From Patescibacteria group bacterium (lineage in GTDB: Bacteria > Patescibacteriota > JAHJAL01), in NCBI GenBank assembly GCA_041648895.1, contig JBAZOB010000001.1, positions 15,093 to 79,092 of the forward strand: a stretch of 64,000 nt of DNA, read 5' to 3'. Positions within the stretch are counted from its first letter, which is position 1, and each line of letters begins with the position of its first letter. The notes under the pieces are model-generated. The model was not told where the DNA came from and ran no database searches. It was given only the letters and a program-made list of their open reading frames with translations. This document shows, piece after piece, positions 2,422 through 39,386 of the stretch. Position numbers and translations under genes: made by a program.

Positions 2422-2440
2422 TGTTTATTTTTTATAATTA

Positions 2441-2508: not shown

Positions 2509-2509
2509 G

Positions 2510-3241: not shown

Positions 3242-3291
3242 GGATCAAGTTTCAAGTCATTTGGCACTTGATTCTTGGTACTTGATACTTG
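3226..3291. repeat. ACTTGATCC-family palindromic element, copy 2.
   Basis: AAGGATCAAGTTCCAAGGATCAAGT...CACTTGATTCTTGGTACTTGATACTTG. It overlaps the putative TTG start of the upstream ORF. Confidence 0.65.
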
Positions 3292-4005
3292 TTATATTTG
3301 TTTCTGTTTATTTAAAATTTCCTCAATAGCGGCTTTTTTGGCATCTCCCATTTCTTTGAGCATGGTGGTGGTGTCGGTGGTGGCGGGTTTTTGGCGTTTG
3401 AACAAGCCGCCGATAATATTACCAATTCCATTACCGGTGGTGGTATCTTTGGGGGTGGGGATTTTGATTTCGGGAACGGCGGCGGTGGGAGTGGATAGAA
3501 CGGTAGCTTTTTTGACATTGGGTTGGGGACGGGTGGCGGGTTTATCTTGTTCGTGTTCGGTCATTTTTTGCCGGACGTCTTTTTCGGGTTCGATCTGGGT
3601 ATCGAGGATGAGGGAGAGTTGTTGTAATTGTGATTTGACTTCGCCGGGGTGACGGATAGCTTCTTTTTCCTTGGCTTTATCGGCTTTACTGGTTTGAGAA
3701 CTGAGTTCAAAAACGGGTGGTGGCTGCTGTTGCCAGAGCATGACTTTGGGGCTGGCCAAAAAGAGTAACAGGTTGGCGATAAATTTGGAAAAGGGCTGTT
3801 CGTTGACGGGTACAAAGGCAAAGGCGATGGCGACCAGGGCGACGGGGATGGACAAGGCGTAGAACAAATTGCCGTAACCGAAATATAGATACACCATATA
3901 TATTATAGCCGAGGCGAACAGTAGGTACAAAAATTGCTCCAAGGTCAGGGGACCAATAATTTGATCTGGCATCTTGATATTTTGGGGGACTTTGTATTGG
4001 AGCAT
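3292..4005 (-). CDS. VirB3/PrgI-like small membrane protein with a Pro/Thr-rich C-terminal tail.
   Basis: Two N-terminal hydrophobic helices (LYLLFASAIIYMVYLYF, ALSIPVALVAIAFAFV) sit immediately upstream of VirB4, as in Gram-positive-type T4SS. No sequence motif confirms the call. Confidence 0.35.
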   Translation of the reverse strand: MLQYKVPQNIKMPDQIIGPLTLEQFLYLLFASAIIYMVYLYFGYGNLFYALSIPVALVAIAFAFVPVNEQPFSKFIANLLLFLASPKVMLWQQQPPPVFELSSQTSKADKAKEKEAIRHPGEVKSQLQQLSLILDTQIEPEKDVRQKMTEHEQDKPATRPQPNVKKATVLSTPTAAVPEIKIPTPKDTTTGNGIGNIIGGLFKRQKPATTDTTTMLKEMGDAKKAAIEEILNKQKQI

Positions 4006-4053
4006 TTGTTTTTATTACGAATGACGAATTATGAGGAACTTGTAGGGGCGGGG

Positions 4054-6714: not shown

Positions 6715-6754
6715 ATTTTATATAAATATTATTTTTATGAAAAAAATTATTTAA

Positions 6755-9025
6755 TTACGCGGTATTGATTGGTGGAACGGTGTTGTATTTGGGGATGGTG
6801 GTGGAGACGGGGCGGGGAGTGGAGGTGGCGGTGGTGGCGGAAGATGGGGCGGAGGATGGGGTGGCGTCGAGGCCTTTTTGGACGGTGGTGGAAATGTTTT
6901 GGCTAGAAGTAAGTTGAGTGGTGATCTGGTTGAGAGTGGTTAGGGTTTGATAGTTATTGTTGGTTTGCTGGCCTTGTTGGATGAGTTGTTTGAGTTCGGG
7001 GCTAGAGGCGGCGTCAATGGCGGCCTTGATGTCGCCATTGCGGACGCTGGTCATGATGCCGCGGACGTTATCGGCGCTAATATTAGGGTTGTTTTTAATA
7101 ATTTGAGTAGCTTGTTGAGAACCTTTGGATTGAATATCACGGTTGTAGCTGACCAGGTCATTGAGGCTTTGGAGTTTGACACCCTCACCGGTGGTGATAT
7201 TGGCGGCGCTAATGTTGGAGTCATATTGGTTGCGAACTTCGACGGGGATAGATTGAATGATTTTATTGGTTTCGGCCGGAGTTTTGGCGTCAGCCAGAGC
7301 AGCAACGGTGGAGCGGTCGGAAACATAACTGGCGACATTGAATTGAGGGGGAGTGCCACTGGTGAGCTGGTCAACGGCCACGCCCATTTTTTGACTTAAT
7401 TCGTTGCCTTTCCATTCAATCTTTTGGCCGGTACCAGTGCCGGCGCCACCGCCGCTGCCAGTATTGCCAGCACCTCCGGCACTGCCCGCGGCAAGAGGAC
7501 TTATTTTATTTTTTGATGCTTGGGTTTTATCTTTTCTCTGGGCTTCCGCGCCAATTTGTTTAGCTTTTTCGCGCCAGGCGTTGAGCCGTTTTTGGTATTC
7601 CTGGAAAGATCTGGTGAGAGGGTTATTGCGGTCTTGGTTTTTATTTTGTGGTTCTTCGGTCATTACCTCAGCTTCTTTTTCAGTTTTATTAAATCCAGCG
7701 ATGAATTTATTTGACTGGGTTTCGGGAGTGTTTTGGTTGGCGAGCGAAGTGCCGCCGCCGGTGGGGCCAATATAGTTGCCTTGTTCATCAATATTTGTTA
7801 AAGCGGTGCGGGGGAAAGTTGGGGGAGGAGCGACAGTTCCGGTTGATTGTGGGGGCACGCCCCCGCCAATACCACGGGTCATGGGATTGTTGCCGCCGAG
7901 TAGATTGGTGACGGCGCGGAGGGGATTTTGTCCGTAGAGCGGAGCCATCATCAGGTAGCTGGTGATTTGCTGGCCGAAGCTGGAAAGGGATAGGGGGATA
8001 AAAATAGCGAATAAAAGGACAAAAATGCCGGACATGTAGCTGACAATTGTTTGGGTAAAATCATTGTCATTGACGTCGACAGTGGGAGAAAAAATGGTCG
8101 AGAGACCGAGGATAAAAAATATAATGGGCAGGATAAAATTCCAGGTGAGGAAGTAGTTGAGCCATTTTTCGCCAATGGCTTTGGAGGGGGGAAAGAAAAG
8201 TAAGATAATGCCCAGTGGGGCCAGGACGATCAGAATGTACAGGATGATATTGCGGATGATGCTGACAAACGCCAGGACGATAATGGCCAGACAGGGCAAA
8301 GAGTAAAAAAAGGCGGCGATAAGTAAATTGATGATCAGTTTCAGTTCAGCCAGTTCGGCTTCGTCGCCGATGTTGTTTACTGCCAATACGATGGTATTTA
8401 GATCGGTGGAGCTGAAACGGTCGATAAAAGCATTGAGCATGTTGGTATTGGTACCGCTTAAGTCAATACCGATGGTCGTATTTAGTACTTTGTTGATGAT
8501 ATCTCCGCCGAAGATGGTATTGAGTTCAACAATCATCAAGTCGCCAACATCGAGCAGAGCTTTGCAGAGCAATAGACTAAAGTTGGCAATAATGAAGCCG
8601 GCAATCAGGGCAGGCAGAGTTTTTTTGATGGCATAGGTTTCAATGTTCAGGCGCAGGGCGTTGGCCAGAGCAATGGCAATCAGGACAAATATGGCGATAA
8701 TGTTGACAAAGAAAATGGCGTAACCCCAACCGGTTTCCAGCTGGTTGTTTTCCAGGCTGACGTACTGTGAATTTTCCACCACATTGGCGGCCAGTTTGGA
8801 GAAGGTGCCAAGGATACTGAGCCAGCTGATAATTTGTTGGGCAATGGCTTGGGCCAGGGAGGAAATGTGTTCTAAATCTTCGATGTCAAACATCTCAGCA
8901 AATCGCAGCAGGATTTTGCTGAGATTGGAATCTTCCGCCAGGTAACCAATGGCATAAAAACTACTGAGTAGGATTGACGACATTATAGAGATGGCTACAA
9001 TGAATAAATCATAATATTGTACCAA
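6755..9025 (-). CDS. VirB6/TrbL-like polytopic membrane protein, paralog 2, with a Gly/Thr/Pro-rich C-terminal region.
   Basis: ETGWGYAIFFVNIIAIFVLIAIALANALRLNIETYAIKKTLPALIAGF is paralogous to 4054..6714. The called start is TTG at 9025; an in-frame ATG at about 8983 is an alternative. Confidence 0.5.
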   Translation of the reverse strand: MVQYYDLFIVAISIMSSILLSSFYAIGYLAEDSNLSKILLRFAEMFDIEDLEHISSLAQAIAQQIISWLSILGTFSKLAANVVENSQYVSLENNQLETGWGYAIFFVNIIAIFVLIAIALANALRLNIETYAIKKTLPALIAGFIIANFSLLLCKALLDVGDLMIVELNTIFGGDIINKVLNTTIGIDLSGTNTNMLNAFIDRFSSTDLNTIVLAVNNIGDEAELAELKLIINLLIAAFFYSLPCLAIIVLAFVSIIRNIILYILIVLAPLGIILLFFPPSKAIGEKWLNYFLTWNFILPIIFFILGLSTIFSPTVDVNDNDFTQTIVSYMSGIFVLLFAIFIPLSLSSFGQQITSYLMMAPLYGQNPLRAVTNLLGGNNPMTRGIGGGVPPQSTGTVAPPPTFPRTALTNIDEQGNYIGPTGGGTSLANQNTPETQSNKFIAGFNKTEKEAEVMTEEPQNKNQDRNNPLTRSFQEYQKRLNAWREKAKQIGAEAQRKDKTQASKNKISPLAAGSAGGAGNTGSGGGAGTGTGQKIEWKGNELSQKMGVAVDQLTSGTPPQFNVASYVSDRSTVAALADAKTPAETNKIIQSIPVEVRNQYDSNISAANITTGEGVKLQSLNDLVSYNRDIQSKGSQQATQIIKNNPNISADNVRGIMTSVRNGDIKAAIDAASSPELKQLIQQGQQTNNNYQTLTTLNQITTQLTSSQNISTTVQKGLDATPSSAPSSATTATSTPRPVSTTIPKYNTVPPINTA

Positions 9026-9111
9026 ATTTCTTCCCTATCTGTCAAGGTTTATGATTTTTAAATTACCTTATTTTCAATTAAATAGATTATATATTAACAA
9101 GCGGGGGGAAT

Positions 9112-9280
9112 AATTACAAATTAATGGGTTGTACTTATTAGTCATTTCCCCTGTCATCCCCGCCTTGAGCGGGGATCTCATATGTAACGCGTTTATTACA
9201 GTCTTGATGATGAGATCCCCGCTCAAGGCGGGGATGACATATAAAGAGATTAATTCAGACTACTCATTAATTTGTAATTT
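9112..9280. repeat. GC-rich palindromic MITE-like element, copy 2, with AATTACAAAT heptamer-repeat arms.
   Basis: AATTACAAATTAATGGGT ... TGTCATCCCCGCCTTGAGCGGGGATCTCAT - spacer - ATGAGATCCCCGCTCAAGGCGGGGATGACA ... ACTCATTAATTTGTAATT. The outer arms are also inverted repeats. Confidence 0.8.
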
Positions 9281-9322
9281 TATTTATCAATAAAAACAGT
9301 CTCCTGTTTTTAAGGAGACTGT
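9280..9322 (-). terminator. Rho-independent terminator downstream of pilin 9349..9693.
   Basis: ACAGTCTCCT-GTTTTTA-AGGAGACTGT forms a 10-bp stem. On the minus strand it is followed by a TTTTATT tract. Confidence 0.6.
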
Positions 9323-9348
9323 AATGAAAAATATGTGCTTATTTATTA

Positions 9349-9693
9349 CTACCCTCGTCGGATTTCATCAATAATGTAACTTACGATCAGGCTGGCAGAG
9401 ACGATCAGGATGAGGCCGATGACTGACCAGGTGATGGTACTGATGGCTTTTTTGGATTCTTCTGGATTGCCGGTGGCGGTGATGTATTTGTAGCCACCAA
9501 TGATGGCAAAAGCGACCGCAATTAGTCCGGACAGTACAGTGGCCACATTGATCAATGTGCCGAGAAAATCATAGATAGTCACATTTTCGTCCAGTGGATT
9601 GAGTTTTTTTAATTGATCAGCAAAATTGAGGGCAAGTATTGGCCACGGCGTTTGAGCAAGAAAATCGGCGAGCGAATTTATTGGTGGCAACAT
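9349..9693 (-). CDS. TrbC/VirB2-like T4SS pilin of the CPR-type T4SS_pilin family, paralog 1.
   Basis: Family motif IIGGYKYITATGNPEESKKAISTITWSVIGLILIVSA follows an N-terminal hydrophobic leader. Confidence 0.7.
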   Translation of the reverse strand: MLPPINSLADFLAQTPWPILALNFADQLKKLNPLDENVTIYDFLGTLINVATVLSGLIAVAFAIIGGYKYITATGNPEESKKAISTITWSVIGLILIVSASLIVSYIIDEIRRG

Positions 9694-9733
9694 GATATAA
9701 TATTACTTCTTAATTTGGCAGAGGGGCTTCGCG

Positions 9734-10114
9734 TTACTGATTCTCATCTACAACTGTATCTATTAGTTCTGTTCCGGGCAGAGCATTTTGAACTGTGACA
9801 ACAATGGCGTAGGCAGCAAAGATAACAACTAGACCAATAACGGCGTTGAGCAAGGTTTTGGTGGCTTTTTTATTTTGTTCTTCATTACCGCCGGCGGTAA
9901 TGTAGTTGAAACCGCCAATAATGAGGTAGATTACGGCTACCAAACCAGCGGCGCCCAGGATGTAGTTAATAACAGTGAAGGCAAATGTTTCTGCCGTGCC
10001 TTTGAAACCCATAAAAGTGCTGGTGGCGGTGGCGGCATTGGCAGCTAGTGTGCAGTAGACCATTGTATAGGCGGTCAAACCAGCGGCGCTGATTTTTTTG
10101 GCCAGTTTACTCAT
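9734..10114 (-). CDS. TrbC/VirB2-like T4SS pilin paralog 2.
   Basis: IIGGFNYITAGGNEEQNKKATKTLLNAVIGLVVIFAAYAIVVT, with a signal-peptide-like N-terminus. Confidence 0.7.
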   Translation of the reverse strand: MSKLAKKISAAGLTAYTMVYCTLAANAATATSTFMGFKGTAETFAFTVINYILGAAGLVAVIYLIIGGFNYITAGGNEEQNKKATKTLLNAVIGLVVIFAAYAIVVTVQNALPGTELIDTVVDENQ

Positions 10115-10150
10115 AGTTTTTACTCCAAAAAATTATTTAATAATTACAAA

Positions 10151-10528
10151 TTAAAAGGGCCAGGTGCTTGATTGATAGTTAATGGCGTTTTCGATGGAAA
10201 CTTTGATGGCATAGGCGGCGAAAACGACCAGGAGGCCAATGACGGCGAAGGTGAGGGTTTTGGTGGCTTTTTTGTGGGTTTCTTCGTTGCCGGCGGAGGT
10301 AATGTATTGAAACCCGCCGAGGATAATAAAGACAACGGAAACGAGGCCGGCGATACTCAGGGCGTAATTGATGATGGCCATTATCAGGTCGACAGCATTG
10401 TCAAAAGGTAGGGGATTGTCGGGGGTAACGACATTAATTTCCGGTGGGGCAGCCAATATTTTTGGTGGATGCCACATGACCAGGCTGGTAAAAATAAAAG
10501 ACAGGATTGTGTGGTTTATTTTTTTCAT
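10151..10528 (-). CDS. TrbC/VirB2-like T4SS pilin paralog 3.
   Basis: ILGGFQYITSAGNEETHKKATKTLTFAVIGLLVVFAAYAIKV, with a signal peptide. Confidence 0.7.
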   Translation of the reverse strand: MKKINHTILSFIFTSLVMWHPPKILAAPPEINVVTPDNPLPFDNAVDLIMAIINYALSIAGLVSVVFIILGGFQYITSAGNEETHKKATKTLTFAVIGLLVVFAAYAIKVSIENAINYQSSTWPF

Positions 10529-10614
10529 GAGGGAAATATTCGCTGGTCAATTATTAATATATTATGAATAATTACAAATTACAAATGGTATAGATGGTGT
10601 GTTAATTTCTGTTG

Positions 10615-10643
10615 TGTCATCCCCGCTCAAGGCGGGGATGACA
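10615..10643. repeat. Solo GC-rich palindrome TGTCATCCCCGCTCAAGGCGGGGATGACA, a half-unit of the MITE-like family.
   Basis: Perfect 12-bp inverted repeat between pilin genes. Confidence 0.8.
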
Positions 10644-10649
10644 AAGAAG

Positions 10650-10988
10650 TTATTGTTCAATTTCTAATACGAGTTTCAGCGTTTCCAAAATGGTAGCGGC
10701 GGCGAGGACGATGACAAAGCCAATGATGGCATTGGTGATAGATTTTTGTCCTTCTTTGATTTTTTCTTCGTTACCGCCGGAAGTGATATATTTGTAGCCG
10801 CCAAAAATCAGGTAGGCAATCATGATCAGGCCGGCAAAGTAGTAGGCCCAGGTGAAGAGAGCAAAAATTAACTCTTCGACCGAGGCAAAATTACTGAGGG
10901 GATTAAGGCGATCGGGGAGGAGACTTCTTAATTGTTGCATGATGTCATCAGCGGCGGTAAAGGTGATTGGTTTGAATATTTGGTTCAT
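10650..10988 (-). CDS. TrbC/VirB2-like T4SS pilin paralog 4.
   Basis: IFGGYKYITSGGNEEKIKEGQKSITNAIIGFVIVLAA. Confidence 0.7.
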   Translation of the reverse strand: MNQIFKPITFTAADDIMQQLRSLLPDRLNPLSNFASVEELIFALFTWAYYFAGLIMIAYLIFGGYKYITSGGNEEKIKEGQKSITNAIIGFVIVLAAATILETLKLVLEIEQ

Positions 10989-11055
10989 TATCGATAATTA
11001 ATTACAAATTACAAATTTAGTTTGCCATCCTGAATATTAATAATACTTATAGTCA

Positions 11056-11454
11056 TTAATAATTTACCCTATCTAAATCCACCGTGGTGATTTCTTGGAG
11101 GAAGGTTTGGACAATGAGGTAGGCGATGATGGCGACTACGAAGCCAATGATGGCCCAAGTCAGGGTGTTTTTGGCGGCGGTGGCTTGTTCTTGATTGCCT
11201 TTGCTGTAGATTAGTTTGATGCCTCCCCAAATAATAAATATGACGGCGACCAATCCGGCCAGACCGATCAAGTTACTACCGATATAGATAACAAAACGCA
11301 GAATGTCTTCAAATGTGATTTTTTGGGCTTCATGGCCGAAGTCGAAGCCGAATAATTTCAGATTGTCGGCGGCCAAAACTTTTTGGGGGAGGAATGTTAT
11401 TAACAACCCGATGGTGGAGGTAAATGGTAGGAGTTTTTTGGTGATATTTTTCAT
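11056..11454 (-). CDS. TrbC/VirB2-like T4SS pilin paralog 5. Start trimmed to the internal ATG (MKNITKK...) to remove the overlap with the upstream pilin.
   Basis: IWGGIKLIYSKGNQEQATAAKNTLTWAIIGFVVAIIAYLIV. The tracked ORF 11056..11532 overlaps the next gene by 74 nt. Confidence 0.6.
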   Translation of the reverse strand: MKNITKKLLPFTSTIGLLITFLPQKVLAADNLKLFGFDFGHEAQKITFEDILRFVIYIGSNLIGLAGLVAVIFIIWGGIKLIYSKGNQEQATAAKNTLTWAIIGFVVAIIAYLIVQTFLQEITTVDLDRVNY

Positions 11455-11458
11455 AAAA

Positions 11459-11839
11459 TTATTGTCCCACCCCGATCCAGGTTTGGATGGTGCTGATGAT
11501 AACGACGCCGGAAAGGGCAATGATAAAGCCAATGATGGCGTTGACGAGAGATTTTTTGCCTTGTTCGACTTGTTGTTCGTTGCCCTGGGCGGTGACTAAA
11601 AGGTAACCGCTGTAGATAATAAAGCCAATGGCGACAAAGCCGGCCAGGGAAAGCGCGAAGCCGATTATACGCAGAAGAATGGGAGCGAGCATTTCGAATA
11701 GATTACCGTCATAGTTAATATCAAGTCCACTGGTAAAATCTTTGATGTAGTCTCGGGCGAATACTTTTTGGGGGAGGGAGGAGATTAGAAGTCCGAGGGT
11801 TGATATTAGTTGTAGGGATTTTTTTTGGATAGACGGCAT
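11459..11839 (-). CDS. TrbC/VirB2-like T4SS pilin paralog 6.
   Basis: IYSGYLLVTAQGNEQQVEQGKKSLVNAIIGFIIALSGVVII, with a signal peptide ending SLPQKVFA. Confidence 0.65.
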   Translation of the reverse strand: MPSIQKKSLQLISTLGLLISSLPQKVFARDYIKDFTSGLDINYDGNLFEMLAPILLRIIGFALSLAGFVAIGFIIYSGYLLVTAQGNEQQVEQGKKSLVNAIIGFIIALSGVVIISTIQTWIGVGQ

Positions 11840-11890
11840 AAATTAAGAATGAAGAATTAGATACTACTGATGTTTGAGAAAAAAGATATT

Positions 11891-12292
11891 TTATAGTTCT
11901 AGACCATGTTCGATAATTTCGTGTCGATCGCGATTATCCGTTTCAACTGTGCTGCTGGTGGGGGCGGGGTTGTTGATGATTTGGGGGGAAATGATGCGGA
12001 GGACAGTGTAGGCAAGTACCAATAATGCCAGGGAGACGAGGGCGGAGATGATGGTGCCGCGGCCTTTGTTGATCATGTCGGGATTGCCCTGGGAAATAAT
12101 CATGGTGTAACCACCGATTACTATCATGATAATCGAAACAGCGGCGATAAGCCAGATGGCATAGATATAAAAATCACTGACATAATCGGCCAGAGAAGTG
12201 TAGTTGCTGGTGCTTTCATTGATGGGAGCGCGGACGTCAACGCTACCATCGACGGCCAGCCAAGTTAGACTTTGGTAGAGTAAATTGATCAT
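11891..12292 (-). CDS. TrbC/VirB2-like T4SS pilin paralog 7, divergent.
   Basis: IGGYTMIISQGNPDMINKGRGTIISALVSLALLVLAYTVL. The ATGA start/stop overlaps the upstream SBP gene. Confidence 0.55.
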   Translation of the reverse strand: MINLLYQSLTWLAVDGSVDVRAPINESTSNYTSLADYVSDFYIYAIWLIAAVSIIMIVIGGYTMIISQGNPDMINKGRGTIISALVSLALLVLAYTVLRIISPQIINNPAPTSSTVETDNRDRHEIIEHGLEL

Positions 12293-14942: not shown

Positions 14943-15030
14943 ATTTGTGCCCTCTAATAAATATGATTGTTGAATTCATCTTTTATTATAATCGACAATG
15001 ATTAAATTGTTAAATGGATAAATAATATAT

Positions 15031-15212
15031 TACGAATTATGAATTAACGAGTGGTGTTAATTAATAACTTGATCCACCTACATATGTCATCCCCGCCTTG
15101 AGCGGGGATCTCATTATCAAGACTGCAATATATACGTTACATATGAGATCCCCGCTCAAGGCGGGGATGACAGATAAAGAGATTAATTCATATAACTCGT
15201 TAATTCGTAATT
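15031..15212. repeat. GC-rich palindromic MITE-like element, copy 3 in inverted orientation, with ACGAATTATGAATTAACGAGT arms.
   Basis: TGTCATCCCCGCCTTGAGCGGGGATCTCAT ... ATGAGATCCCCGCTCAAGGCGGGGATGACA. The spacer is the reverse complement of the copy-2 spacer. It lies in the divergent region between Hsp20 and the amidase gene. Confidence 0.8.
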
Positions 15213-15292
15213 TATTATTTATCCATTTACAAAATCATCAAATATTGATACAATATATAGATTTTACAATAAAACAAAAATATAAATTAGAT

Positions 15293-17800
15293 ATGAAAAA
15301 CAAAAGTATTATGGAAGCTTTTAGCGAAGAATATTCTTCAGGTAAGGGGTGGGCGGCCGAACAGGAGAAGAAATCGTGGTTTTTTGTTTGGTCAGCGCGA
15401 ATGGCCAGTTTATTGATGGTACTGCTGATACTTTTTTTGGGGATATTTGCTTTCGGTTATGCCGATAATATTGGTCAGGTTAAGGTGGACAGATTGCAGG
15501 ATACTGATTTTGTGTTGAAAGAAGCCAACGTGCTGTCGACCGACTGGTCGGGTGACGCGGGTGAACAAACTTCAACTTTGACTATTCCAACGGGTCAAAA
15601 TATTTTTTCCTATGTTTCGGACGCGCGGGAAGCCAAGCGTTCTTTCTGGATGATCGCGGCCAAGTTGTCAGCCAAGATTCCGGCGGGGACAAAGGTGGTG
15701 GGAAAAGTTAGAGTTAGTAATGATAGTAGTACTTGGTCGGAGTGGTATGATTTGGATTTGGAGAAGCTATCAAATGAGCAGAACAAAGATGTGACGGAAG
15801 TGCCGATTTTATTGGAAAAGAAATCAAAATATGCTCAATATTCACTGGTTTTGTCGAGCGACGATGTTAATTTAACTCCGGAAATATATGATGTTGATTT
15901 GGTACTGATTGATCCCGATGATAAATTGGCTTTAGTTAAAAAGGGCTGGAGTAGTCTGATGGCTCGAGTTTCGGGTAGTACGGGAGTTGATGTTATTAGT
16001 CGTAGTGAGTGGGGGGCCGATGAATCGATCATGACTTGGGATGATAAAGAATACGCGCCAGTGGAGCAGATTGTGGTTCATCATACCGCTGGTAGTAATA
16101 ATTCACCTTTGGATCCGGCGGCGGTAGTGCGGGGTATATATTATTTTCACGCGGTGGAGAAAGACTGGGGAGATATTGGTTATAACTATATTATTGATCA
16201 AGATGGCAATATTTATGAGGGCCGGGAAGGTGGCTTCGGAGTGGTAGCGGCTCATTCTTCGGGTAACAATTATGGTAGTGTGGGAATTGCGATTATTGGG
16301 AACTATAGTGAAGATGCTCCGGCCAGTCAAAGTATGGACGGCTTAATAAATTTAGTCGAATATATTGGGTATCAAGGTGATTTGGATTTAACCACCAAGC
16401 ATAATTTTGAAGGTAATAATGTACCGGTGGTGGCGGGGCACCGTGATGTTAACCCGACTGAATGTCCAGGCGATGTTTTGTATGCCATGTTGCCGGATGT
16501 AGCAATTGCGGCTAGCCAGGGTGAGAATACTTTACCAGCCAAGACTTACCAGGCACAATTGGTACATCAGTCACAAAAAAGTTTAGATTTAAAATCAGGC
16601 CAAATACAAAAAGTGGTGGTGACTTACAAAAATTCTGGTTCAGCGGTGTGGTTAAAACAAAGAGGGGAAGTAGAGTTGGTGCCGGTTGATCCATATCCGC
16701 GGAGCAGTGGTTTTGCCACTCCGGACTGGGATAGTGTTGAAGTGGTGGGGACAATGAATCAGGTGACGGTGATGTCGGGTAATGAGGCGACATTTGATTT
16801 GCCACTCTTCGGGATCGATCAGGCTGGTCAATATGGGGAAAAATTTGCCTTGCTGGGTCCGGATGGTTTGATTAGTGGGACTGAATTTTCAGTGAATATC
16901 GATAATCAAAAGAGTAGTGTGGACTCGGGTGAAGATAGCAATATTGATAATCAAAATGACCAAATAATTGATGACGATAACGATAGTGACAATAATACCA
17001 ATGATATCAATGATTCCGATACTAGCGTCGTCGAAGCTGATTGGTATCATTCGGCTTGGGTGGCGCAAACTGATCATTTGACTTTGTACCCGGGTGAGGA
17101 AAAATCTGTTTGGATTGATTTTAAAAATACTGGTAAAACTCCTTGGTATAAAGATAGCGATTATCCAGTTCGTTTAGGGACGGCCAATCCTCAAGACAGA
17201 AATAGCGCTTTGGCCGTGGTAGATAGTGGATGGCTCTCGGCTAATCGGATTGAAATGAGTCAATGGAGCGTGGAACCTGGAGAAGTGGCTCGTTTTCGTT
17301 TTACCTTGAAGGCGGGCAATAATAGTTCGGGGGTGTATCAGGAATATTTCCGGCCGGTGGTGGAAAATGTAACCTGGATGGAAGACCAGGGGGTGTATAT
17401 CCAAATTGAAGTGGTGGAGTCGCAATATATGGCTCTGTTTGTGGAACAAAGTGAAAATCCAATCACTTTATCCAGTGGTCGTAAAGCTAGATTGTGGGTG
17501 GAATTAAAAAATACCGGTAACGTGGTTTGGACCAAAGATAGTGATACGCCGGTTCGTTTGGCGACTGATCGTGATCCCGATCGAGCCAGCATTTTTTATT
17601 CACCCGGGTATTGGATCAGTGATAATCGGGCGGCCAGTATGAAAAAAAATGCGGTGTCGCCGGGTGACAGCGTCCGTTTTGAAGTGGTGGTCACGGCTCC
17701 CGATGAGCCGGGTTCGTATCGGGAATATTTTCGACCGGTGGCGGATAATATGCAGTGGATGGATGATTTAGGAATTTATTGGGATATCAATGTGGAGTAA
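15293..17800 (+). CDS. Secreted/membrane-anchored N-acetylmuramoyl-L-alanine amidase (PGRP/Amidase_2 domain) with an acidic linker and 2-3 C-terminal ~110-aa FW-type repeats.
   Basis: VVHHTAG...GDIGYNYIID.DGNIYEGR...AHSSGNNYGSVGIAIIGNY...HRDVNPTECPG (Amidase_2). Repeats of the form WV.FKNTG..W....D.PVRLGT..P.DR.S...W.S.NR......V.PGE.ARF.F...GVYQEYFRPV.EN..WM.D.GVY. The start is taken at the first ATG after the upstream repeat; the tracked ORF begins at 15098 inside the MITE. Confidence 0.75.
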   Translation: MKNKSIMEAFSEEYSSGKGWAAEQEKKSWFFVWSARMASLLMVLLILFLGIFAFGYADNIGQVKVDRLQDTDFVLKEANVLSTDWSGDAGEQTSTLTIPTGQNIFSYVSDAREAKRSFWMIAAKLSAKIPAGTKVVGKVRVSNDSSTWSEWYDLDLEKLSNEQNKDVTEVPILLEKKSKYAQYSLVLSSDDVNLTPEIYDVDLVLIDPDDKLALVKKGWSSLMARVSGSTGVDVISRSEWGADESIMTWDDKEYAPVEQIVVHHTAGSNNSPLDPAAVVRGIYYFHAVEKDWGDIGYNYIIDQDGNIYEGREGGFGVVAAHSSGNNYGSVGIAIIGNYSEDAPASQSMDGLINLVEYIGYQGDLDLTTKHNFEGNNVPVVAGHRDVNPTECPGDVLYAMLPDVAIAASQGENTLPAKTYQAQLVHQSQKSLDLKSGQIQKVVVTYKNSGSAVWLKQRGEVELVPVDPYPRSSGFATPDWDSVEVVGTMNQVTVMSGNEATFDLPLFGIDQAGQYGEKFALLGPDGLISGTEFSVNIDNQKSSVDSGEDSNIDNQNDQIIDDDNDSDNNTNDINDSDTSVVEADWYHSAWVAQTDHLTLYPGEEKSVWIDFKNTGKTPWYKDSDYPVRLGTANPQDRNSALAVVDSGWLSANRIEMSQWSVEPGEVARFRFTLKAGNNSSGVYQEYFRPVVENVTWMEDQGVYIQIEVVESQYMALFVEQSENPITLSSGRKARLWVELKNTGNVVWTKDSDTPVRLATDRDPDRASIFYSPGYWISDNRAASMKKNAVSPGDSVRFEVVVTAPDEPGSYREYFRPVADNMQWMDDLGIYWDINVE

Positions 17801-17802
17801 AG

Positions 17803-17855
17803 AAGTATCAAGTATTAAATACTTAATCCTTGATACTTGAAACTTGATCCTTGGA
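17803..17855. repeat. ACTTGATCC-family palindromic element, copy 3, downstream of the amidase gene.
   Basis: AGTATCAAGTATTAAATACTTAATCCTTGATACTTGAAACTTGATCCTTGG, a nested palindrome. Confidence 0.65.
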
Positions 17856-17883
17856 TAATAATTTGTAATTAAATTAATAACAA

Positions 17884-18321
17884 ATGAAAAAGAATATTAA
17901 AACAAAAAATAAAGTTATGCGAAAAGATGTCAAAGAAAGTGTGGTGGAGATTATGCGGCAGGAATTGAAAGATATTGATTGTTTGCTGGATGATTATTTT
18001 GAAGAGCAGCCCAATGAGATGGGGCAAAAGTGGTTCAGTTTCAATGAATCGAGGGTAATGGGAGCAGATGAAGTGTTGCGGATTAGTGTGTGGGGACTCA
18101 ATGATGATATTGTCAGGCATAATGATTTTTTTGATTCATATTATACCTGGGTGGGTGATATGGTGGCTGGTTTGGACAAGGCGGGAAAATTACAGTTCAA
18201 GCGCGAGAATACTCGTAAGGGTGAGGTAGCCGATGAGATTTTTGAGTTATTCAAAGGCTTTTGTGGGGGCAAGGTGGCGTGCAGTTTTCCGGAAGTAATA
18301 GAACTGAAATTGATAATTTAA
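17884..18321 (+). CDS. Hypothetical protein.
   Basis: 145-aa ORF with a plausible ATG; no motif recognised. Confidence 0.4.
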   Translation: MKKNIKTKNKVMRKDVKESVVEIMRQELKDIDCLLDDYFEEQPNEMGQKWFSFNESRVMGADEVLRISVWGLNDDIVRHNDFFDSYYTWVGDMVAGLDKAGKLQFKRENTRKGEVADEIFELFKGFCGGKVACSFPEVIELKLII

Positions 18322-18369
18322 TTTGATTTTTCAGTAATGCTAATTTAAATGAATATGATAATTTAATAA

Positions 18370-20397
18370 ATGGCGCAAGTCGATAAAAACCAGAATAATC
18401 AGATTGGTTCGTCAGCGGATAAGATATCCAATGTTGGGCGAAATATGATTAATTTTGCCAAGGGAAAAAAGGAAGTATCGGAAGTAAGTAATTTAGATAC
18501 CCCGGTGAAAGATGATGGTGACTATGATATTGCGTCGGCGGGGAATAAGGTGGTGCAGAGTGGCCAAATGATGATTGAAAGCGCAGATGTTGGTAAGAAA
18601 AAAATCGAATCGGCGTGGGATGAGAATCAATATGTCAATAAATTAGACAATGTTGATTATGATTATCGAAAGCATATATTGACAGATATGCAAGAAAAAG
18701 GATCAGTGACGCCTGAGCAATTACAATATTTAAGAGAAAATGATCCGCAGGGGTATAAAGCAGTGACAGGTCTTATCAAATCTCAATCACAAGTTGGAAT
18801 TACTTCACAAGAGAAAGGGGCGCAGGAGACATATAATGAGGCTTTGACTCAAGCAGAAATAGAAGGTGTGCAAGTGGCAGCGATGGGGGGAGTTGGATAT
18901 TTGGTGATGAAGGGGATTGAACTTGGGGGTAAGAAAGTAGTAGTGCCAAAGATACTAGAAACAGCCAAAGTGGAAGAGGAAGATTTAGTAAATCCTGCCG
19001 GGGGCGAAAGTGTGGAAAATTACTTGCTGGTCAAAGTAGGCAAAGGAGAGAAATTATCAACGGAAGAGATAGAATATATCAAGTCACTGCCTCAGGAACG
19101 ACAAGAAAGATTGATGGAGGCGATAGGCGGTATACAAAAATCTAATGTTGAAATCAAAGATACGAGACAGACACAAGAGAGTTATTTAGTCGGAACAAAA
19201 TCAGGTGCTGAATCGGCGGTAGAGACGGCTAGCATGTTGTATAATCCATCAAACAAGCTAGCAGATAAAGTGAGCAAAACTGTCGCGAAAGCGGAAGAAA
19301 AGTTGGTAACTAAAGGTGGAAAAATCGGACTAATGTATGAGGCACTGAACAAAGGATTCGTTGGAACGCAGAAAAAAGTTGTAGGATTTTTGACTAAACC
19401 GATTAGTAATTTGCTTAAGTCAAATAAAGGAAAAATAAATGATGAGATGGGGGAAGCGGCTATAAAAGTTGATGATGCGTTGACTGATAGCAAGGAGATG
19501 GTTAAGGATTTGGAACCTCAGGAGATTAATTATAAATCCGATGATGTAAAGAATAGTGATCCAGTATTGGATGAATTATTGGGAACGGTTGATGAGGAGG
19601 TAACAGAAAAGGGTGGAAAAGTGATGGAAGATGTTATGCAATATGATAATTGGTACTATAATCCTAGCACAGGCGCTAAGGAATATTATGATGAATTTGG
19701 TAAAATAGTGAAAATCGAGCCGCGTACTTATGGGGAAAAATTCCCGGTGGTGTATAATTCGACAGTTATGATTGATGGAATTGAATATAATGTTCTTAAG
19801 GAAAAAGGAAAAGTTATTTTGGACCCAGGCCGCCCCAAGTTAGAGTCTGGGTCAGCGAATTTGCTAAGCATTGATGACTTACAAAGTGGAGAAGTTAAGG
19901 GTTATCTAGCAGATATTGATATGATGCCCAAAAAACTGATAGACAATTTAAAAGAAGGTGGGGTTAATGTGGTCATTGGTAATACAGATGTTCCCGGATT
20001 GTCTAATAATAGGCTTCTCGAGGGTAAACCCAGGGGGTGGGATCAAGATAATATGTCAGGTGTCAAAGCATGTTATGATCCTGTTAATAAGATAGTATAT
20101 GCTGGCGAAGGGATGGGTGCTAGTACGAGCCCGGTTTTACATGAATACGGTCATGCAGTAATTGATTTGTTTGATTCGACTGGCAACCCAAAAATTATTG
20201 AAGCTCATGAACGTTTATATGATAATCTTGGTGATTATTTAAAACAGGGAGGTCCGGGAGGTGAAGCGGGAGTTGATGAGTTTTTTGCTGAGTCTTTTGC
20301 TGATTATATTAAGTTGCCAAAAAAACTTTTTGTAGCAAGATATGATGAACAGTGGCATGGCCAAATGAAAGAAATAATAAAAAATAATTCGCAATAG
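18370..20397 (+). CDS. Large hypothetical protein with a C-terminal HExxH zinc-metallopeptidase-like domain, possibly ATLF/PPEP-like.
   Basis: C-terminal SPVLHEYGHAVIDLF (HExxH), then about 35 aa later DEFFAESFADY, which could supply the third zinc ligand. No signal peptide. Confidence 0.45.
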   Translation: MAQVDKNQNNQIGSSADKISNVGRNMINFAKGKKEVSEVSNLDTPVKDDGDYDIASAGNKVVQSGQMMIESADVGKKKIESAWDENQYVNKLDNVDYDYRKHILTDMQEKGSVTPEQLQYLRENDPQGYKAVTGLIKSQSQVGITSQEKGAQETYNEALTQAEIEGVQVAAMGGVGYLVMKGIELGGKKVVVPKILETAKVEEEDLVNPAGGESVENYLLVKVGKGEKLSTEEIEYIKSLPQERQERLMEAIGGIQKSNVEIKDTRQTQESYLVGTKSGAESAVETASMLYNPSNKLADKVSKTVAKAEEKLVTKGGKIGLMYEALNKGFVGTQKKVVGFLTKPISNLLKSNKGKINDEMGEAAIKVDDALTDSKEMVKDLEPQEINYKSDDVKNSDPVLDELLGTVDEEVTEKGGKVMEDVMQYDNWYYNPSTGAKEYYDEFGKIVKIEPRTYGEKFPVVYNSTVMIDGIEYNVLKEKGKVILDPGRPKLESGSANLLSIDDLQSGEVKGYLADIDMMPKKLIDNLKEGGVNVVIGNTDVPGLSNNRLLEGKPRGWDQDNMSGVKACYDPVNKIVYAGEGMGASTSPVLHEYGHAVIDLFDSTGNPKIIEAHERLYDNLGDYLKQGGPGGEAGVDEFFAESFADYIKLPKKLFVARYDEQWHGQMKEIIKNNSQ

Positions 20398-20408
20398 AGG
20401 ATAATAAA

Positions 20409-20615
20409 ATGATAATGATTTCAAAAGGTAAAGATAATGAGTTATATGTGCCGATAAGGGTCGAGGGAGGAGGAATGATTGGAGATGGCATGAAGGTGGT
20501 ACGTCCTGCTGATGAGGATTATGAGATGTATTTTGAGAAATATCAACGTGATCAGAAGCTGGAAGAACAGTTTCAAAAAGAGATTTCAAAATACATGAAG
20601 AAAAATATTGGCTAG
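20409..20615 (+). CDS. Small hypothetical protein of 68 aa, immediately downstream of the HExxH protein.
   Basis: Tightly spaced same-strand ORF, followed by the terminator-like hairpin AAACTGTATTTTTACAGTTTT. Confidence 0.35.
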   Translation: MIMISKGKDNELYVPIRVEGGGMIGDGMKVVRPADEDYEMYFEKYQRDQKLEEQFQKEISKYMKKNIG

Positions 20616-20763
20616 GTAAAGTTTAGTAATCAGCTAAGTGATTTAGGGGTATTGTGGATTAGTTTTTATATAAAACTGTATTTTTACAGTTTTTATTTTG
20701 TTTTAAGCTTACTTTGATAGAATTAATATAGAATAATTTATCAGATTAAAATTTGTAATTCGT

Positions 20764-20793
20764 CCGCCCGAGGCGGATGCGCCTTGGGCGCAT
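20764..20793. repeat. GC-rich double hairpin (CCGCCCGAGGCGG, ATGCGCCTTGGGCGCAT) flanked by AATTTGTAATT heptamer motifs, upstream of the SpoIID-domain gene.
   Basis: Same composite of AATTWGTAATT arms plus GC hairpins as the MITE-like family. Confidence 0.6.
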
Positions 20794-20814
20794 AATTTGT
20801 AATTAAAAAGTTGT

Positions 20815-23013
20815 ATGAAAAAGAATATTTTGTTTTTAGCGCTGATATTAACCATGCTAATGTCAAATTTGAATATGGTGCGGGCGGCTGATTATCAGGC
20901 GCAGTGGACAGGGCAAAGTGAGTATTTGACCATGACAGAAGGTGAGGAACAGACGGTGTGGGTGGAGTTTAAAAATACCGGTAGTGCCGATTGGCGGCAA
21001 ACTGGTCAGAACGCGGTGCATTTGGGAACGGCGAAAAATCTAGACCGGGCCAGTTCTTTTTATGATAATACTTCGTGGTTAACCAGTAATCGGATTGAGA
21101 TGAAGCAATCGGTGATTCATCCCGGTGAAACGGCTCGTTTTGAGTTTAAGATTAAGGCTCCATATAACTCGGGTGTTTATCAAGAATATTTTCGATTGGT
21201 AGCGGAGAATGTATCTTGGTTAAATGATGTCGGTTTATATTGGGAATGGCGGGTGATCGGGGCGGCCGGTTATGAGGACATGTGTATGAGTCGGGATAGC
21301 GTGGTTCAGTCAAGCGGGTGTGTGGTGCCCGAGCCGTGGATGTATGATTCGACTTGGAATGGTCAAAGTAAATATTTAACTTTGGCTCCGGGCGAGAGTC
21401 GAGAAGTGTGGGTGGAATTTGTTAATGATGGGGTAGCGACTTGGTATCAGAACGGTGATTTTGCGGTTCATTTAGGTACCGCCAATCCAATTGATAGAAA
21501 TAGTAATTTTGTCGATACTGATTGGCTTTCTACCAATCGGTTGGTTTTGGAACAAACCAGCGTTAAGCCGGGCGAGACGGGTCGTTTTTCTTTTACGGTT
21601 AAGGCTCCAACTAAAACGGGTGTTTATTATGAATATTTCCGGCCGGTGGTAGAAAATGTATCTTGGTTGCGCGATCAGGGGGTGTATTGGATGTTTGAAG
21701 TAGCGAACGCGGCCAATGATGATTCTTCGGATGATGATGCGGTTAGCGATAGTTGGGCGGCTAAGTTGATTGAACAAACTGGAAATCCGACTTTTGTGGT
21801 CGGTGAGGAAGCGGAAGAATATTTAACAGTGAAATACAAAAATATTGGCCAAACGACATGGGAAAAAAGTGGCAGTAACGTGGTCCAGTTGGCGACTAGC
21901 CAACCCAATGACCGCAATAGCGGTTTTATGACGAGTGATTGGCTCAATAGTCATCGGATTGCAATGCAGGAGAGTAGTGTGGCGCCGGGTGAGTACGCGA
22001 CTTTTAAATTTCGGGTATCTCCGGGGGAGACAGTAGCTCTGGGGACGCATAATGAACATTTTAATTTGGTGGCCAATGACAATTTCTGGTTTAGCGGGGT
22101 GGGGGTGGCCTGGAACATGGTTTTGGCGGGGGTGTCGGATGCGGTGGTAGTGACGGCCGATGGTAATTTTGATGTGAAAGATGGGGTAACGGGCAGTGTT
22201 TTGGCCACTTTGAGTTCAGGGCAAAAAGTTAATGTCAAATATGCTGGTGGCAATTATCAAATAACTTGGCCGGGTGGGTCTAAAAGTACTAGTAACTATG
22301 TGCGGCTAACGGGTAAAAATGGGGCGATTATGGAGGTAGTTTCATATAACGATATTAAATCATGGAATAGCAGTCTCAATGATAATAAATTTCGGGATAC
22401 GATTGAGGTGCGTTATTCGACCAATACCAATCAATTGTGGGTGATCAATGAATTACCCTTGGAAGATTATGTGGCGGGAGTGGCGGAGACGGGTAACTCT
22501 TCACCGACAGAATTTTTAAAAGCCATGACGATTGCTGAGCGAACTTACGTGATTTATCATCATAACCGTGGGGGACGTCATCCGGAAAATTATGTTGATC
22601 TGTACAATAGCGTCAACGGAAATGGTGATGACCAGGTTTATCGCGGCTATGGCTTTGAACAGCGCAATGATGAGGTGACCGAGGCAGCTGCCGATACAGT
22701 TGGTAAAGTGGTGACATATAACAATAATGTAGTCGTGACACCCTATTTTTCACATGCCGATGGCCGCACTCGCAGCTACAAAGAGGTGTGGGGTAGTGAC
22801 GTGGCCTGGTGTGTGTCAGTTGACGATCCTTATACAGCGGGGATGAGTTTGCTTGGTCATGGCGTAGGTATGAGTGCTTTAGGGGCGCAGATGTTTGCGG
22901 AAAAAGAGGGCAAAACTTATGACTGGATTTTAAAATATTATTATACTGGTATCGATATCTCCAATTATGATACAGCGAGTGAGAGAATCAGGGTCGGGAT
23001 TTATCATTTGTAA
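20815..23013 (+). CDS. Secreted SpoIID/LytB-domain protein (amidase enhancer / lytic transglycosylase-like) with three N-terminal FW-type repeats.
   Basis: Signal peptide MKKNILFLALILTMLMSNLNMVRA. Three roughly 115-aa repeats are homologous to those in the amidase. The C-terminal SpoIID domain reads ELPLEDYVAGV...ERTYVIYH...YGFEQRN...TPYFSHADGRTRSYKEVWG. Confidence 0.75.
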   Translation: MKKNILFLALILTMLMSNLNMVRAADYQAQWTGQSEYLTMTEGEEQTVWVEFKNTGSADWRQTGQNAVHLGTAKNLDRASSFYDNTSWLTSNRIEMKQSVIHPGETARFEFKIKAPYNSGVYQEYFRLVAENVSWLNDVGLYWEWRVIGAAGYEDMCMSRDSVVQSSGCVVPEPWMYDSTWNGQSKYLTLAPGESREVWVEFVNDGVATWYQNGDFAVHLGTANPIDRNSNFVDTDWLSTNRLVLEQTSVKPGETGRFSFTVKAPTKTGVYYEYFRPVVENVSWLRDQGVYWMFEVANAANDDSSDDDAVSDSWAAKLIEQTGNPTFVVGEEAEEYLTVKYKNIGQTTWEKSGSNVVQLATSQPNDRNSGFMTSDWLNSHRIAMQESSVAPGEYATFKFRVSPGETVALGTHNEHFNLVANDNFWFSGVGVAWNMVLAGVSDAVVVTADGNFDVKDGVTGSVLATLSSGQKVNVKYAGGNYQITWPGGSKSTSNYVRLTGKNGAIMEVVSYNDIKSWNSSLNDNKFRDTIEVRYSTNTNQLWVINELPLEDYVAGVAETGNSSPTEFLKAMTIAERTYVIYHHNRGGRHPENYVDLYNSVNGNGDDQVYRGYGFEQRNDEVTEAAADTVGKVVTYNNNVVVTPYFSHADGRTRSYKEVWGSDVAWCVSVDDPYTAGMSLLGHGVGMSALGAQMFAEKEGKTYDWILKYYYTGIDISNYDTASERIRVGIYHL

Positions 23014-23028: not shown

Positions 23029-23589
23029 ATGAGATTATTTTCTAAAATTGGCAAAAGGAAACGACGGACGGGGCGGATGAAGCAGAAGTCCAGTTGGTTG
23101 GATGGTATTCTTAAGAAAGCCAAACGGACAAATAAACGGGTAATCAAGCGAACGGTGCGAGGGGGGAATGGGCCGGCGGTTAAATCTTTTTTTGACTACC
23201 GTACTTTTTTGCGGTCGCGGCTTTTTAATGTTTCATTGATGATAGTGGCTGGCTATATGATATTTTTGACGGGACGGGAGGCTTTGGCCAATTACTATCA
23301 GTCAAAACAAATTGCCAAGATTGAAACGGAAAATAAAACTATTGAACAGAAAAATGAGGAATTAAAGTATCTTTTGGAGTATTATAAGACTGAGACCTTT
23401 GCGGAATTGGAGGCCAGACGGTATTTGAATTTAAAAAAACCGGGAGAAAGTGTGGCGATTGTTCCAGTTGATATGAATGAGATGCCGGTTGATGAGGGAC
23501 AACAACCGCCAGAATTAAAAGCGCGACCCAATTATAAGAAGTGGATCGATTTTATTTTTGCCGATATTAGTTCACTGCCGGATAATTAA
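23029..23589 (+). CDS. FtsB/DivIC-like septum formation initiator.
   Basis: Single TM helix (VSLMIVAGYMIFLTG), then coiled-coil IETENKTIEQKNEELKYLLEYYKTETFAELEARRYLNLKKPGE, typical of the Septum_form family. Confidence 0.6.
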   Translation: MRLFSKIGKRKRRTGRMKQKSSWLDGILKKAKRTNKRVIKRTVRGGNGPAVKSFFDYRTFLRSRLFNVSLMIVAGYMIFLTGREALANYYQSKQIAKIETENKTIEQKNEELKYLLEYYKTETFAELEARRYLNLKKPGESVAIVPVDMNEMPVDEGQQPPELKARPNYKKWIDFIFADISSLPDN

Positions 23590-39385: not shown

Positions 39386-39386
39386 G

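Follow-up and report, generated by a model that had tools for sequence, protein, structure and literature searches.

A candidate genetically split autolysin with FW (NBR1-like) repeat arrays in a Patescibacteria genome

A 64,000-nt stretch of a Patescibacteria group bacterium assembly (GCA_041648895.1, contig JBAZOB010000001.1, positions 15,093 to 79,092; hereafter the window) encodes two predicted extracytoplasmic peptidoglycan hydrolases, a peptidoglycan recognition protein (PGRP)-type amidase (gene A) and a SpoIID/LytB-type enzyme (gene B), which carry the same tandem FW (NBR1-like) repeat. We propose, with about an even chance of being right, that A and B each form one half of an Atl-like, genetically split modular autolysin of Patescibacteria (candidate phyla radiation, CPR), with the FW arrays as targeting module and the organism's own wall as the likeliest target. 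A would strip the stem peptides from peptidoglycan and B, like characterised SpoIID, would then cut the bare glycan strands. The FW arrays would bind an envelope ligand, most plausibly a glycan or peptidoglycan feature, and keep both enzymes at one place, in the role held elsewhere by GW/SH3b, LysM or SLH repeats; the wall would most likely be the organism's own, acted upon during growth and daughter-cell separation.

Domain composition of the two hydrolases

The product of gene A is identical in length and sequence to a deposited NCBI protein from a metagenome-assembled genome (MAG) (P0052; 835 aa, 'N-acetylmuramoyl-L-alanine amidase'), and that of gene B is 100% identical to the MAG protein P0004 ('SpoIID/LytB domain-containing protein [Patescibacteria group bacterium]'). 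Both proteins are encoded on the same 135,224-bp contig, with PF16158 precomputed on both. The coordinates of all features are given in Table 1.

A is predicted to be an extracytoplasmic Amidase_2/PGRP enzyme with intact zinc and catalytic residues. Its best PDB sequence match was Drosophila PGRP-LB (1OHT/7NSX, E 4e-21), and the motifs HH, DIGY, GHR and TECPG, corresponding to the zinc/catalytic His-His, Tyr, His and Cys, are kept in the alignment. The segments VVHHTAG, DIGYNY and GHRDVNPTECPG are conserved between A and this active amidase (1OHT), in line with Amidase_2 membership. The roles of the aligned zinc ligands (His, His, Cys) and of the catalytic Tyr are presumably those known from T7 lysozyme and PGRP-LB. 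The PGRP-type amidase named in the initial annotation of this DNA was thereby borne out, by the Amidase_2 match (59 bits) and by PGRP-LB as best PDB match with aligned active-site residues. The hydrophobic segment of A reaches a Kyte-Doolittle hydrophobicity of 3.18 in its best 15-residue window and is preceded by 28 polar residues; two orthologues have the equivalent segment directly at the N-terminus. Whether this is a signal anchor or a long signal peptide, the catalytic domain and the repeats would lie outside the cytoplasm.

B is predicted to be secreted and retains the catalytic Glu of SpoIID/LytB enzymes; it is a SpoIID/LytB-domain protein, not the sporulation orthologue. Its assignment to SpoIID/LytB, also made initially, agrees with PF08486 (57.4 bits, cut-off 23) and TIGR02669 (116 bits, cut-off 83). 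B aligns to the SpoIID structures 4RWR, 5I1T and 5TXU, with Glu558 opposite the catalytic Glu101 of C. difficile SpoIID (5I1T chain index + 24 = 5TXU numbering), for which the residue roles, including that of Glu101, have been reported (PMC6221140). In the same alignment the zinc site of C. difficile SpoIID was not kept in B. The signal peptide of B is classical (MKKNILFLALILTMLMSNLNMVRA/ADYQ), and the A/ADYQ junction recurs in four compared orthologues, in one of them as AQSDY. Secretion of both proteins, as first supposed, is thus consistent with the classical signal peptide of B and the signal anchor or long signal peptide of A.

Two adjoining GC-rich hairpins (CCGCCCGAGGCGG, ATGCGCCTTGGGCGCAT) were found at 20765-20793, ~25 nt upstream of the B start codon, inside a 417-bp intergenic region and without a proper T-tract; they could form a leader structure or a weak terminator of the island genes described below. 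A promoter-like site was located at 15226-15254, upstream of A, by promoter scan, the terminator and promoter scans being otherwise uninformative. Upstream of A or B, Rfam gave no riboswitch or other known RNA; the sole matches were tRNA-Ser and spurious miRNA-model matches on a palindrome.

The repeat regions of A (412-832) and B (20-435) align at E 8e-64 with 35% identity, and at E 9e-57 when shifted by one repeat, so that the sharing of a repeat by both hydrolases, as noticed initially, holds. Three copies had been counted in B, which was correct, and '2-3' in A, which has three. The six copies are 24-54% identical in pairs. Against a family profile, made from 36 diverse repeats of which one only (B-R2) is from the window, they score 72-142 bits (E from 8e-22 to 2e-43), and the 64 kb window contains no further open reading frame (ORF) that matches this profile. 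The consensus string proposed initially agrees with the six-copy consensus and with that of 589 non-redundant repeats from 241 proteins. The repeats of A and B are acidic (isoelectric point (pI) 4.6-5.0), with 9-17% Trp + Tyr + Phe.

In a tree of repeats from three genomes, copies group by position and not by genome (bootstrap 0.74-1.0). A-R1 groups with its orthologues at a bootstrap of 1.0 and, at 0.87, with repeat 1 of a fused protein; B-R3 groups with its orthologue from a related locus, L003 (1.0). This grouping indicates that no recent homogenisation has occurred and that each position has been maintained separately. Recent gene conversion or concerted evolution as the origin of the repeats common to A and B was rejected on the same clustering. 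The deeper branches (bootstrap 0.2-0.7) leave the direction, fusion or fission, undecided.

The repeat as an FW domain and its family

PF16158 (N_BRCA1_IG) matched A at 49.5 bits and B at 56.2 bits (gathering score 28), and three single repeats pass this score alone. The best PDB sequence match of the 36-sequence repeat profile was 4OLE (E 1e-5); a profile of the six A/B repeats matched antibody light chains only among PDB sequences (E above 0.004), which is generic Ig-like noise. An AlphaFold model of A-R2 (pLDDT 85.4) had the FW domains of NBR1 and ILRUN (4OLE, 6VHI) as its top PDB matches, and the modelled ~110-residue beta-sandwich of Ig-like/fn3 topology appears to fit solved FW domains more closely than other folds when superposed. 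The initial annotation had suggested an FW/NBR1-like repeat and named a Pfam comparison and structure prediction as checks; both point to this family.

Its further argument, a likeness in four conserved Trp, stood in part. In a profile alignment to 4OLE (17-19% identity, possibly off by one residue), only the second NBR1 Trp (NTGxxW) is matched by Trp, which is 99% conserved in 589 bacterial repeats; the fourth lies opposite Phe, and the first and third opposite Val and Gly. The bacterial repeat has its other conserved Trp elsewhere, within a family-specific insert and close to the C-terminus. As the NTGxxW Trp alone coincides, the likeness in Trp count is partly coincidental. The insert, 13 residues of the pattern P-x-D-R-x-S-x-F-x3-W, is conserved in bacterial repeats and absent from NBR1, and its polar loop residues (D, R, S, W, R) are 63-90% conserved over the 589 non-redundant repeats of 241 proteins.

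At E ≤ 1e-3 the six-repeat profile recovered the representatives of 6,452 clusters (50% identity); the number falls to 3,291 at E ≤ 1e-10 and to 829 at E ≤ 1e-30. A word-indexed homologue search with the six-repeat alignment had given three proteins only; exhaustive searches of representatives and with full-length B were used. Arrays comprise 1-13 copies, three being commonest (241 members examined), and an N-terminal hydrophobic segment is present in 81% of family members vs 24% of other window proteins. Of 49 representatives that form an unbiased sample, 46 match PF16158; the partner domains were SpoIID (9), Amidase_2 (8), Peptidase_S8 (6), CARDB (5), M23 (1) and C39-like (1), to which the list of B homologues adds GH6, B_lectin and fn3. 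LysM, SH3b, PG_binding, SLH, SPOR and CW_binding occurred in none of the 93 homologues of B. Among 244 family proteins, whose sampling was biased by the query, the domain order was [jelly-roll]-amidase-FWn in 27, FWn-SpoIID in 30 and, as fusions, amidase-FW(2-5)-SpoIID in 18, and none had an FW array before an amidase or after a SpoIID domain.

Ten of twelve organism-named homologues belong to the Patescibacteria group (Saccharimonadales, Peribacteraceae, Falkowbacteria and others), the other two being one KSB1 and one 'bacterium'. Six of seven genome loci found with a three-repeat alignment are Patescibacteria, Microgenomates or Saccharibacteria, a sample too small for a taxonomic census. The sole non-Patescibacteria locus of this genome scan is alphaproteobacterial, a weak FW-like match (40% identity over 56 residues, E 7e-6) in Ochrobactrum sp. 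CGA5 (L013; NZ_VCIG01000042.1, 6001-6162).

Locus in relatives and possible functions

The left flank of the pair, T4SS (type IV secretion system) pilins - SBP - NTP_transferase - HSP20, lies on one strand, and the autolysin gene(s) diverge from it. This flank is common to the window and the related loci L003, L004, L014 and L015 (the L015 locus starts at the SBP gene, with the pilins out of view). In L003 the amidase and FW-SpoIID genes are directly adjacent with nothing between them, and in L004 a single 1185-aa amidase-FW-SpoIID fusion stands at the orthologous locus. The split state with a variable island is found in the window, in L015 (5221-8889: proteins of 214 aa, 758 aa, a TrwB/DUF87 ATPase, and 235 aa) and in L001 (2896-9792: six genes of 390, 137, 638, 97, 40 and 933 aa, including a 2H-SAK/HD_4 protein). 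The simplest reason for the presence of repeats on both A and B is that they are halves of an amidase-FWn-SpoIID unit that was broken or joined inside the array.

A hotspot of variable cargo lies between the amidase and SpoIID genes. In the window, the 675-aa island protein has a marginal ATLF-like HExxH C-terminal domain (PF07737, 29.1 bits vs cut-off 27.4), no signal peptide and no homologue but itself among 5.8 billion sequences. A homologue of the 145-aa protein (45% identity) occupies the corresponding place in L001, the large L001 protein being unrelated to the 675-aa one. The HExxH protein was rejected as a conserved third partner, being an ORFan in an island that is absent or differently filled in relatives; it is cargo of the variable island and not an autolysin component. 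That the two hydrolases bracket a HExxH protein, as noted initially, is true of the window and incidental, relatives having nothing, other genes or a fusion in its place. With a T4SS alongside, the ATLF-like protein might be exported as an effector or toxin.

The order of action proposed above follows characterised enzymes. SpoIID is inactive on peptidoglycan until an amidase yields denuded strands (PMC6221140), and the GlcA domain of Atl needs AmiA to act first. Atl processing gives AmiA-R1R2 and R3-GlcA, with repeats on each; its domain order AmiA-repeats-GlcA reflects amidase-first action, and its repeats target the septum (PMC7679415). By analogy, the FW arrays probably hold A and B on the wall. 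The organism's own wall is taken as the likeliest target because an ftsB/divIC-like gene lies directly downstream of B, as it follows the SpoIID gene in four of nine loci (window, L001, L003, L015); the membrane tether of A and the positional conservation of the pair, together with this linkage, favour a role on the self wall in cell separation.

Several points weigh against this reading. The ftsB/divIC linkage is absent from the other five of the nine loci (L004, L005, L006, L014, L016), and L014 has an FW-SpoIID gene without an adjoining amidase. B falls below the TIGR02870 SpoIID equivalog cut-off (98 bits vs 234.75), so that its substrate preference is extrapolated from distant relatives. 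Wall targeting by the FW repeats is put forward as a hypothesis that fits the architecture, and the sole FW domain with a defined ligand, that of fungal Nbr1, binds a protein peptide and not a glycan (PMC9233695). The acidity of the repeats (pI 4.6-5.0) makes Atl-like electrostatic binding to anionic polymers unlikely; an acidic, aromatic-rich composition is compatible with carbohydrate stacking, though as evidence this is weak. Finally, the organism is probably an episymbiont, so the wall of a host is a possible target.

In the alternative that we take most seriously, though we consider it rather improbable, the same enzymes would act in the same order on a host wall, as a weapon or feeding tool with which an episymbiont breaches host peptidoglycan where the cells touch, and the FW arrays would recognise the surface of the host. 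The source is a Patescibacteria MAG, and all cultivated members of the group are described as episymbionts (PMC12206443); a conserved T4SS cluster (TraG/VirB4-like ATPase, PrgI, two TrbL, pilins) adjoins the pair, the two genes flank an island that encodes an ATLF-like metalloprotease in the window and a TrwB/DUF87 ATPase in L015, and FW arrays also occur on secreted S8 and M23 peptidases. A, however, would be tethered by its N-terminal hydrophobic segment to the producer's own membrane. Pair or fusion is moreover widespread, positionally conserved and ftsB/divIC-linked in four loci, which resembles a housekeeping function rather than a fast-evolving effector, and the repeat positions, which behave as stable orthologues, show no diversification. 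A further, very improbable reading makes the pair a peptidoglycan-remodelling accessory of the neighbouring T4SS (VirB1/PrgK-like) that opens the wall locally for assembly. T4SS genes do lie 0.4-14 kb upstream, in a neighbourhood kept in L003, L004 and L014, and monoderm T4SSs employ two-domain peptidoglycan hydrolases (PMC12102498). Yet SBP, a UDP-sugar pyrophosphorylase-like NTP_transferase and HSP20 intervene, the pair is transcribed divergently, and relatives of it stand away from any T4SS genes in L005, L006 and L016; a survey of Patescibacteria T4SS genes gives VirB1 homologues of other types and names neither amidase nor SpoIID.

Other alternatives concern what the arrays do. Passive Ig-like spacers or a stalk, placed between catalytic domains or projecting them and having no ligand of their own, seem unlikely. 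The repeats of A are distal to both membrane anchor and catalytic domain, the array lying C-terminal, beyond the enzyme and not between it and the anchor. Once its signal peptide is cleaved, B has no other retention device, and with mere spacers nothing would keep it on the cell. Arrays are also carried by S8 proteases, M23 peptidases, GH6 and lectin domains. Conservation of the polar residues in the family-specific loop insert, and the retention of every repeat position as a distinct orthologous clade (bootstrap 0.74-1.0), likewise suggest targeting. Little probability is also given to protein-protein docking, in which arrays would dock onto one another, onto a pilus or S-layer protein or onto peptide termini and assemble an A-B complex as SpoIIM scaffolds SpoIIP/SpoIID. 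So far one FW ligand is known, the N-terminal tail of a protein, which sits in a pocket between strands beta1 and beta6 (PMC9233695); SpoIID and SpoIIP of sporulating bacteria depend on a scaffold (PMC6221140), and a common docking site would suit the presence of the same array on numerous unrelated secreted enzymes. Across the loci, however, no conserved gene beside the pair stood out as a candidate partner, and the 13-residue insert and three of the four Trp positions (one being Phe) differ from NBR1, so that the Nbr1 pocket cannot be assumed in the bacterial repeat.

With regard to novelty, both proteins are deposited and named, the Pfam assignment is public, and each domain belongs to a curated family. 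Bacterial FW domains with 'strikingly diverse' architectures were recorded in 2012 (PMC3357945), and NBR1 papers call the function of the FW domain 'enigmatic' and mention merely its presence in some bacterial proteins. Our literature search returned no paper linking PF16158 or NBR1-like domains with peptidoglycan hydrolases or Patescibacteria, and a search for SpoIID with Patescibacteria no paper on the amidase/FW/SpoIID architecture. A major bacterial form of FW is seen here to be an extracellular tandem array on Patescibacteria wall hydrolases and proteases, of which this locus gives a concrete pair, an amidase and a SpoIID-type enzyme with the same arrays, made as one fused protein in relatives. 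By analogy, A/B would be an Atl-like modular autolysin composed of FW repeats and a SpoIID domain, and a lead on bacterial FW function. If the arrays bind the wall, they would be the first wall-targeting module identified in this large uncultured phylum, would offer a plausible ancestral function of the FW domain and would explain how the septal wall is split in these minimal cells; if they do not, the pair is one of ordinary, already annotated hydrolases. A broader and improbable extension holds that tandem FW arrays are a general Patescibacteria envelope-anchoring module binding a peptidoglycan feature, and that NBR1, the eukaryotic autophagy receptor, inherited its cargo-binding FW domain from a bacterial domain that bound the wall; the ligand would then be a stem-peptide terminus or denuded glycan, bound via the D-R-x-S-x-F...W insert or the beta1/beta6 pocket.

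Window features and comparison with known systems

The Patescibacteria-type T4SS cluster (580-12292, minus strand) is followed by SBP, NTP_transferase and HSP20, an order that recurs in L003, L004 and L014. A dispersed GC-rich palindromic unit (TGTCATCCCCGCCTTGAGCGGGGATCTCAT) occurs seven times in intergenic positions, singly or as inverted pairs, vs zero expected, and looks like a repetitive extragenic palindrome (REP) or a miniature inverted-repeat transposable element (MITE). Between the HSP20 and amidase genes it forms a composite hairpin (15082-15175) within larger inverted repeats (15011-15229); this palindrome pair folds at -64.6 kcal/mol (z -12.7) and is the source of the spurious Rfam miRNA-model matches. 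A near-identical paired copy lies at 9127-9267. GC skew is strongly positive throughout the window (1-64000; +0.10 to +0.46 per 2 kb) regardless of gene strand and greater where genes are on the plus strand, a strand asymmetry unusually large for a bacterium. GC content drops to 0.31-0.39 from ~34 kb to 56 kb, which suggests acquired DNA. A restriction-modification/defence-like cluster at 36131-45219 comprises a SNF2/ResIII helicase (1084 aa), an N6_N4 DNA methylase (633 aa) and a ResIII helicase with a C-terminal RE_endonuc domain (1005 aa). A DUF3800-IX RNA was matched by Rfam at 53703-53772 on the minus strand (62.2 bits vs gathering score 36.8, E 4e-11).

Table 1. Features of the A/B locus and of its surroundings in the window (window coordinates; residue numbers refer to the respective protein)
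Feature	Position	Strand	Basis
TraG P-loop/VirB4-like ATPase	580..2421	-	
PrgI	3292..4005	-	
Two TrbL/VirB6 genes	4054..6714, 6755..9025	-	
Small ORFs in the position of the T4SS pilin genes of related loci	9734..12292	-	Assigned by position
Palindromic 17-mers	425, 9158, 9217, 10621, 15091, 15150, 29301		
Gene A (835 aa): PGRP-type N-acetylmuramoyl-L-alanine amidase, anchored in the membrane, FW repeats R1-R3 at the C-terminus	15293..17800	+	ORF; Pfam Amidase_2 and N_BRCA1_IG above cut-offs
A hydrophobic segment, ~residues 29-57: signal anchor or long signal peptide	15377..15463	+	Sequence WFFVWSARMASLLMVLLILFLGIFAFGYA
A N-terminal extracytoplasmic domain, residues 59-235: jelly-roll beta-sandwich, carbohydrate-binding module (CBM)-like	15467..15997	+	
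A Amidase_2/PGRP catalytic domain, residues 236-405	15998..16507	+	PF01510 59.3 bits vs cut-off 26
FW repeat A-R1, residues 416-540, divergent amidase-proximal type	16538..16912	+	Family profile 72 bits, E 8e-22; no Pfam match alone
A acidic Asp/Asn-rich low-complexity linker, residues 541-581	16913..17035	+	Read from sequence; net charge -14.5
FW repeat A-R2, residues 582-709	17036..17419	+	PF16158 21.0 bits alone (below 28); family profile 126 bits
FW repeat A-R3, residues 709-835	17417..17797	+	PF16158 33.0 bits alone; family profile 114 bits
Variable island, not part of the system	17884..20615	+	145-aa ORF 17884..18321; 675-aa ORFan 18370..20397; 68-aa ORF 20409..20615
Gene B (732 aa): SpoIID/LytB-type lytic transglycosylase, secreted, FW repeats R1-R3 at the N-terminus	20815..23013	+	ORF; Pfam, NCBIfam
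B signal peptide, residues 1-24	20815..20886	+	MKK, hydrophobic core, VRA/AD
FW repeat B-R1, residues 25-149	20887..21261	+	PF16158 34.2 bits alone; family profile 130 bits
FW repeat B-R2, residues 173-298	21331..21708	+	PF16158 28.5 bits alone; family profile 142 bits
FW repeat B-R3, residues 311-439, divergent SpoIID-proximal type	21745..22131	+	Family profile 98 bits, E 6e-30; no PF16158 match alone
B SpoIID/LytB domain, residues 440-732	22132..23010	+	TIGR02669 116.4 bits vs cut-off 83.3
ftsB/divIC-like divisome gene	23029..23589	+	PF04977 DivIC 36 bits; 15 bp after B

Among FW domains, those of NBR1 (4OLE), ILRUN (6VHI) and bacterial XRE-FW proteins have the fold, the PF16158 match and NTGxxW in common with the A/B repeats. 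Unlike these relatives, repeats of the A/B type are extracellular, tandem (1-13 copies) and placed on wall hydrolases and proteases, whereas the bacterial FW proteins already described are single-copy, cytoplasmic XRE-family regulators. NBR1 lacks the 13-residue insert, and the bacterial repeats keep one of its four Trp positions as Trp. In their arrangement, FW arrays resemble the LysM, SH3b, GW, SLH and CWB2 modules of Gram-positive bacteria, which likewise repeat in tandem, lack catalytic activity and stand on either the N- or the C-terminal side of various secreted hydrolases; the folds are unrelated, and among the sampled B homologues the two kinds were mutually exclusive.

The SpoIIP-SpoIID (SpoIIM) engulfment machine offers the same division of labour, an amidase that denudes the glycan and SpoIID that cleaves it (PMC6221140), and B has the fold family and the catalytic Glu of the latter. 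SpoIIP, however, is Amidase_3-like and A is Amidase_2/PGRP, and B lies far below the equivalog cut-off of sporulation SpoIID, without the C. difficile zinc site. The engulfment machine belongs to endospore formers, whereas the A/B organism is not known to form spores. SpoIIP and SpoIID are co-localised by a membrane scaffold, SpoIIM, of which no counterpart was identified in the window; A and B would be co-localised by their common FW arrays.

The closest likeness is to Atl/AtlE (SP-propeptide-AmiA-R1R2 / R3-GlcA), which, like the fused A/B relatives, combines a PGRP-like Amidase_2 domain, a repeat array and a glycan-cleaving domain. The Atl-type order recurs in the 18 fused relatives (amidase-FW(2-5)-SpoIID), one fusion standing at the orthologous locus. 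In both systems the product is split with repeats left on each enzyme, and the amidase acts first and the glycan cleaver on naked strands, as would be expected of A and B. The parts differ. The repeats of Atl are GW/SH3b-like half-barrels and those of A/B FW/NBR1-type Ig-like sandwiches; the glycan cleaver is a GH73 glucosaminidase in Atl and a SpoIID-type lytic transglycosylase in B, and no Pfam match to GW, SH3 or Glucosaminidase was obtained in A or B. Lipoteichoic-acid binding, in contrast to Atl, is unlikely for A/B because their repeats are acidic. Atl is split by proteolysis and A/B at the gene level, B having a signal peptide of its own. A and B are therefore not members of the Atl family, and their likeness to Atl is one of convergent design, not of whole-protein homology.

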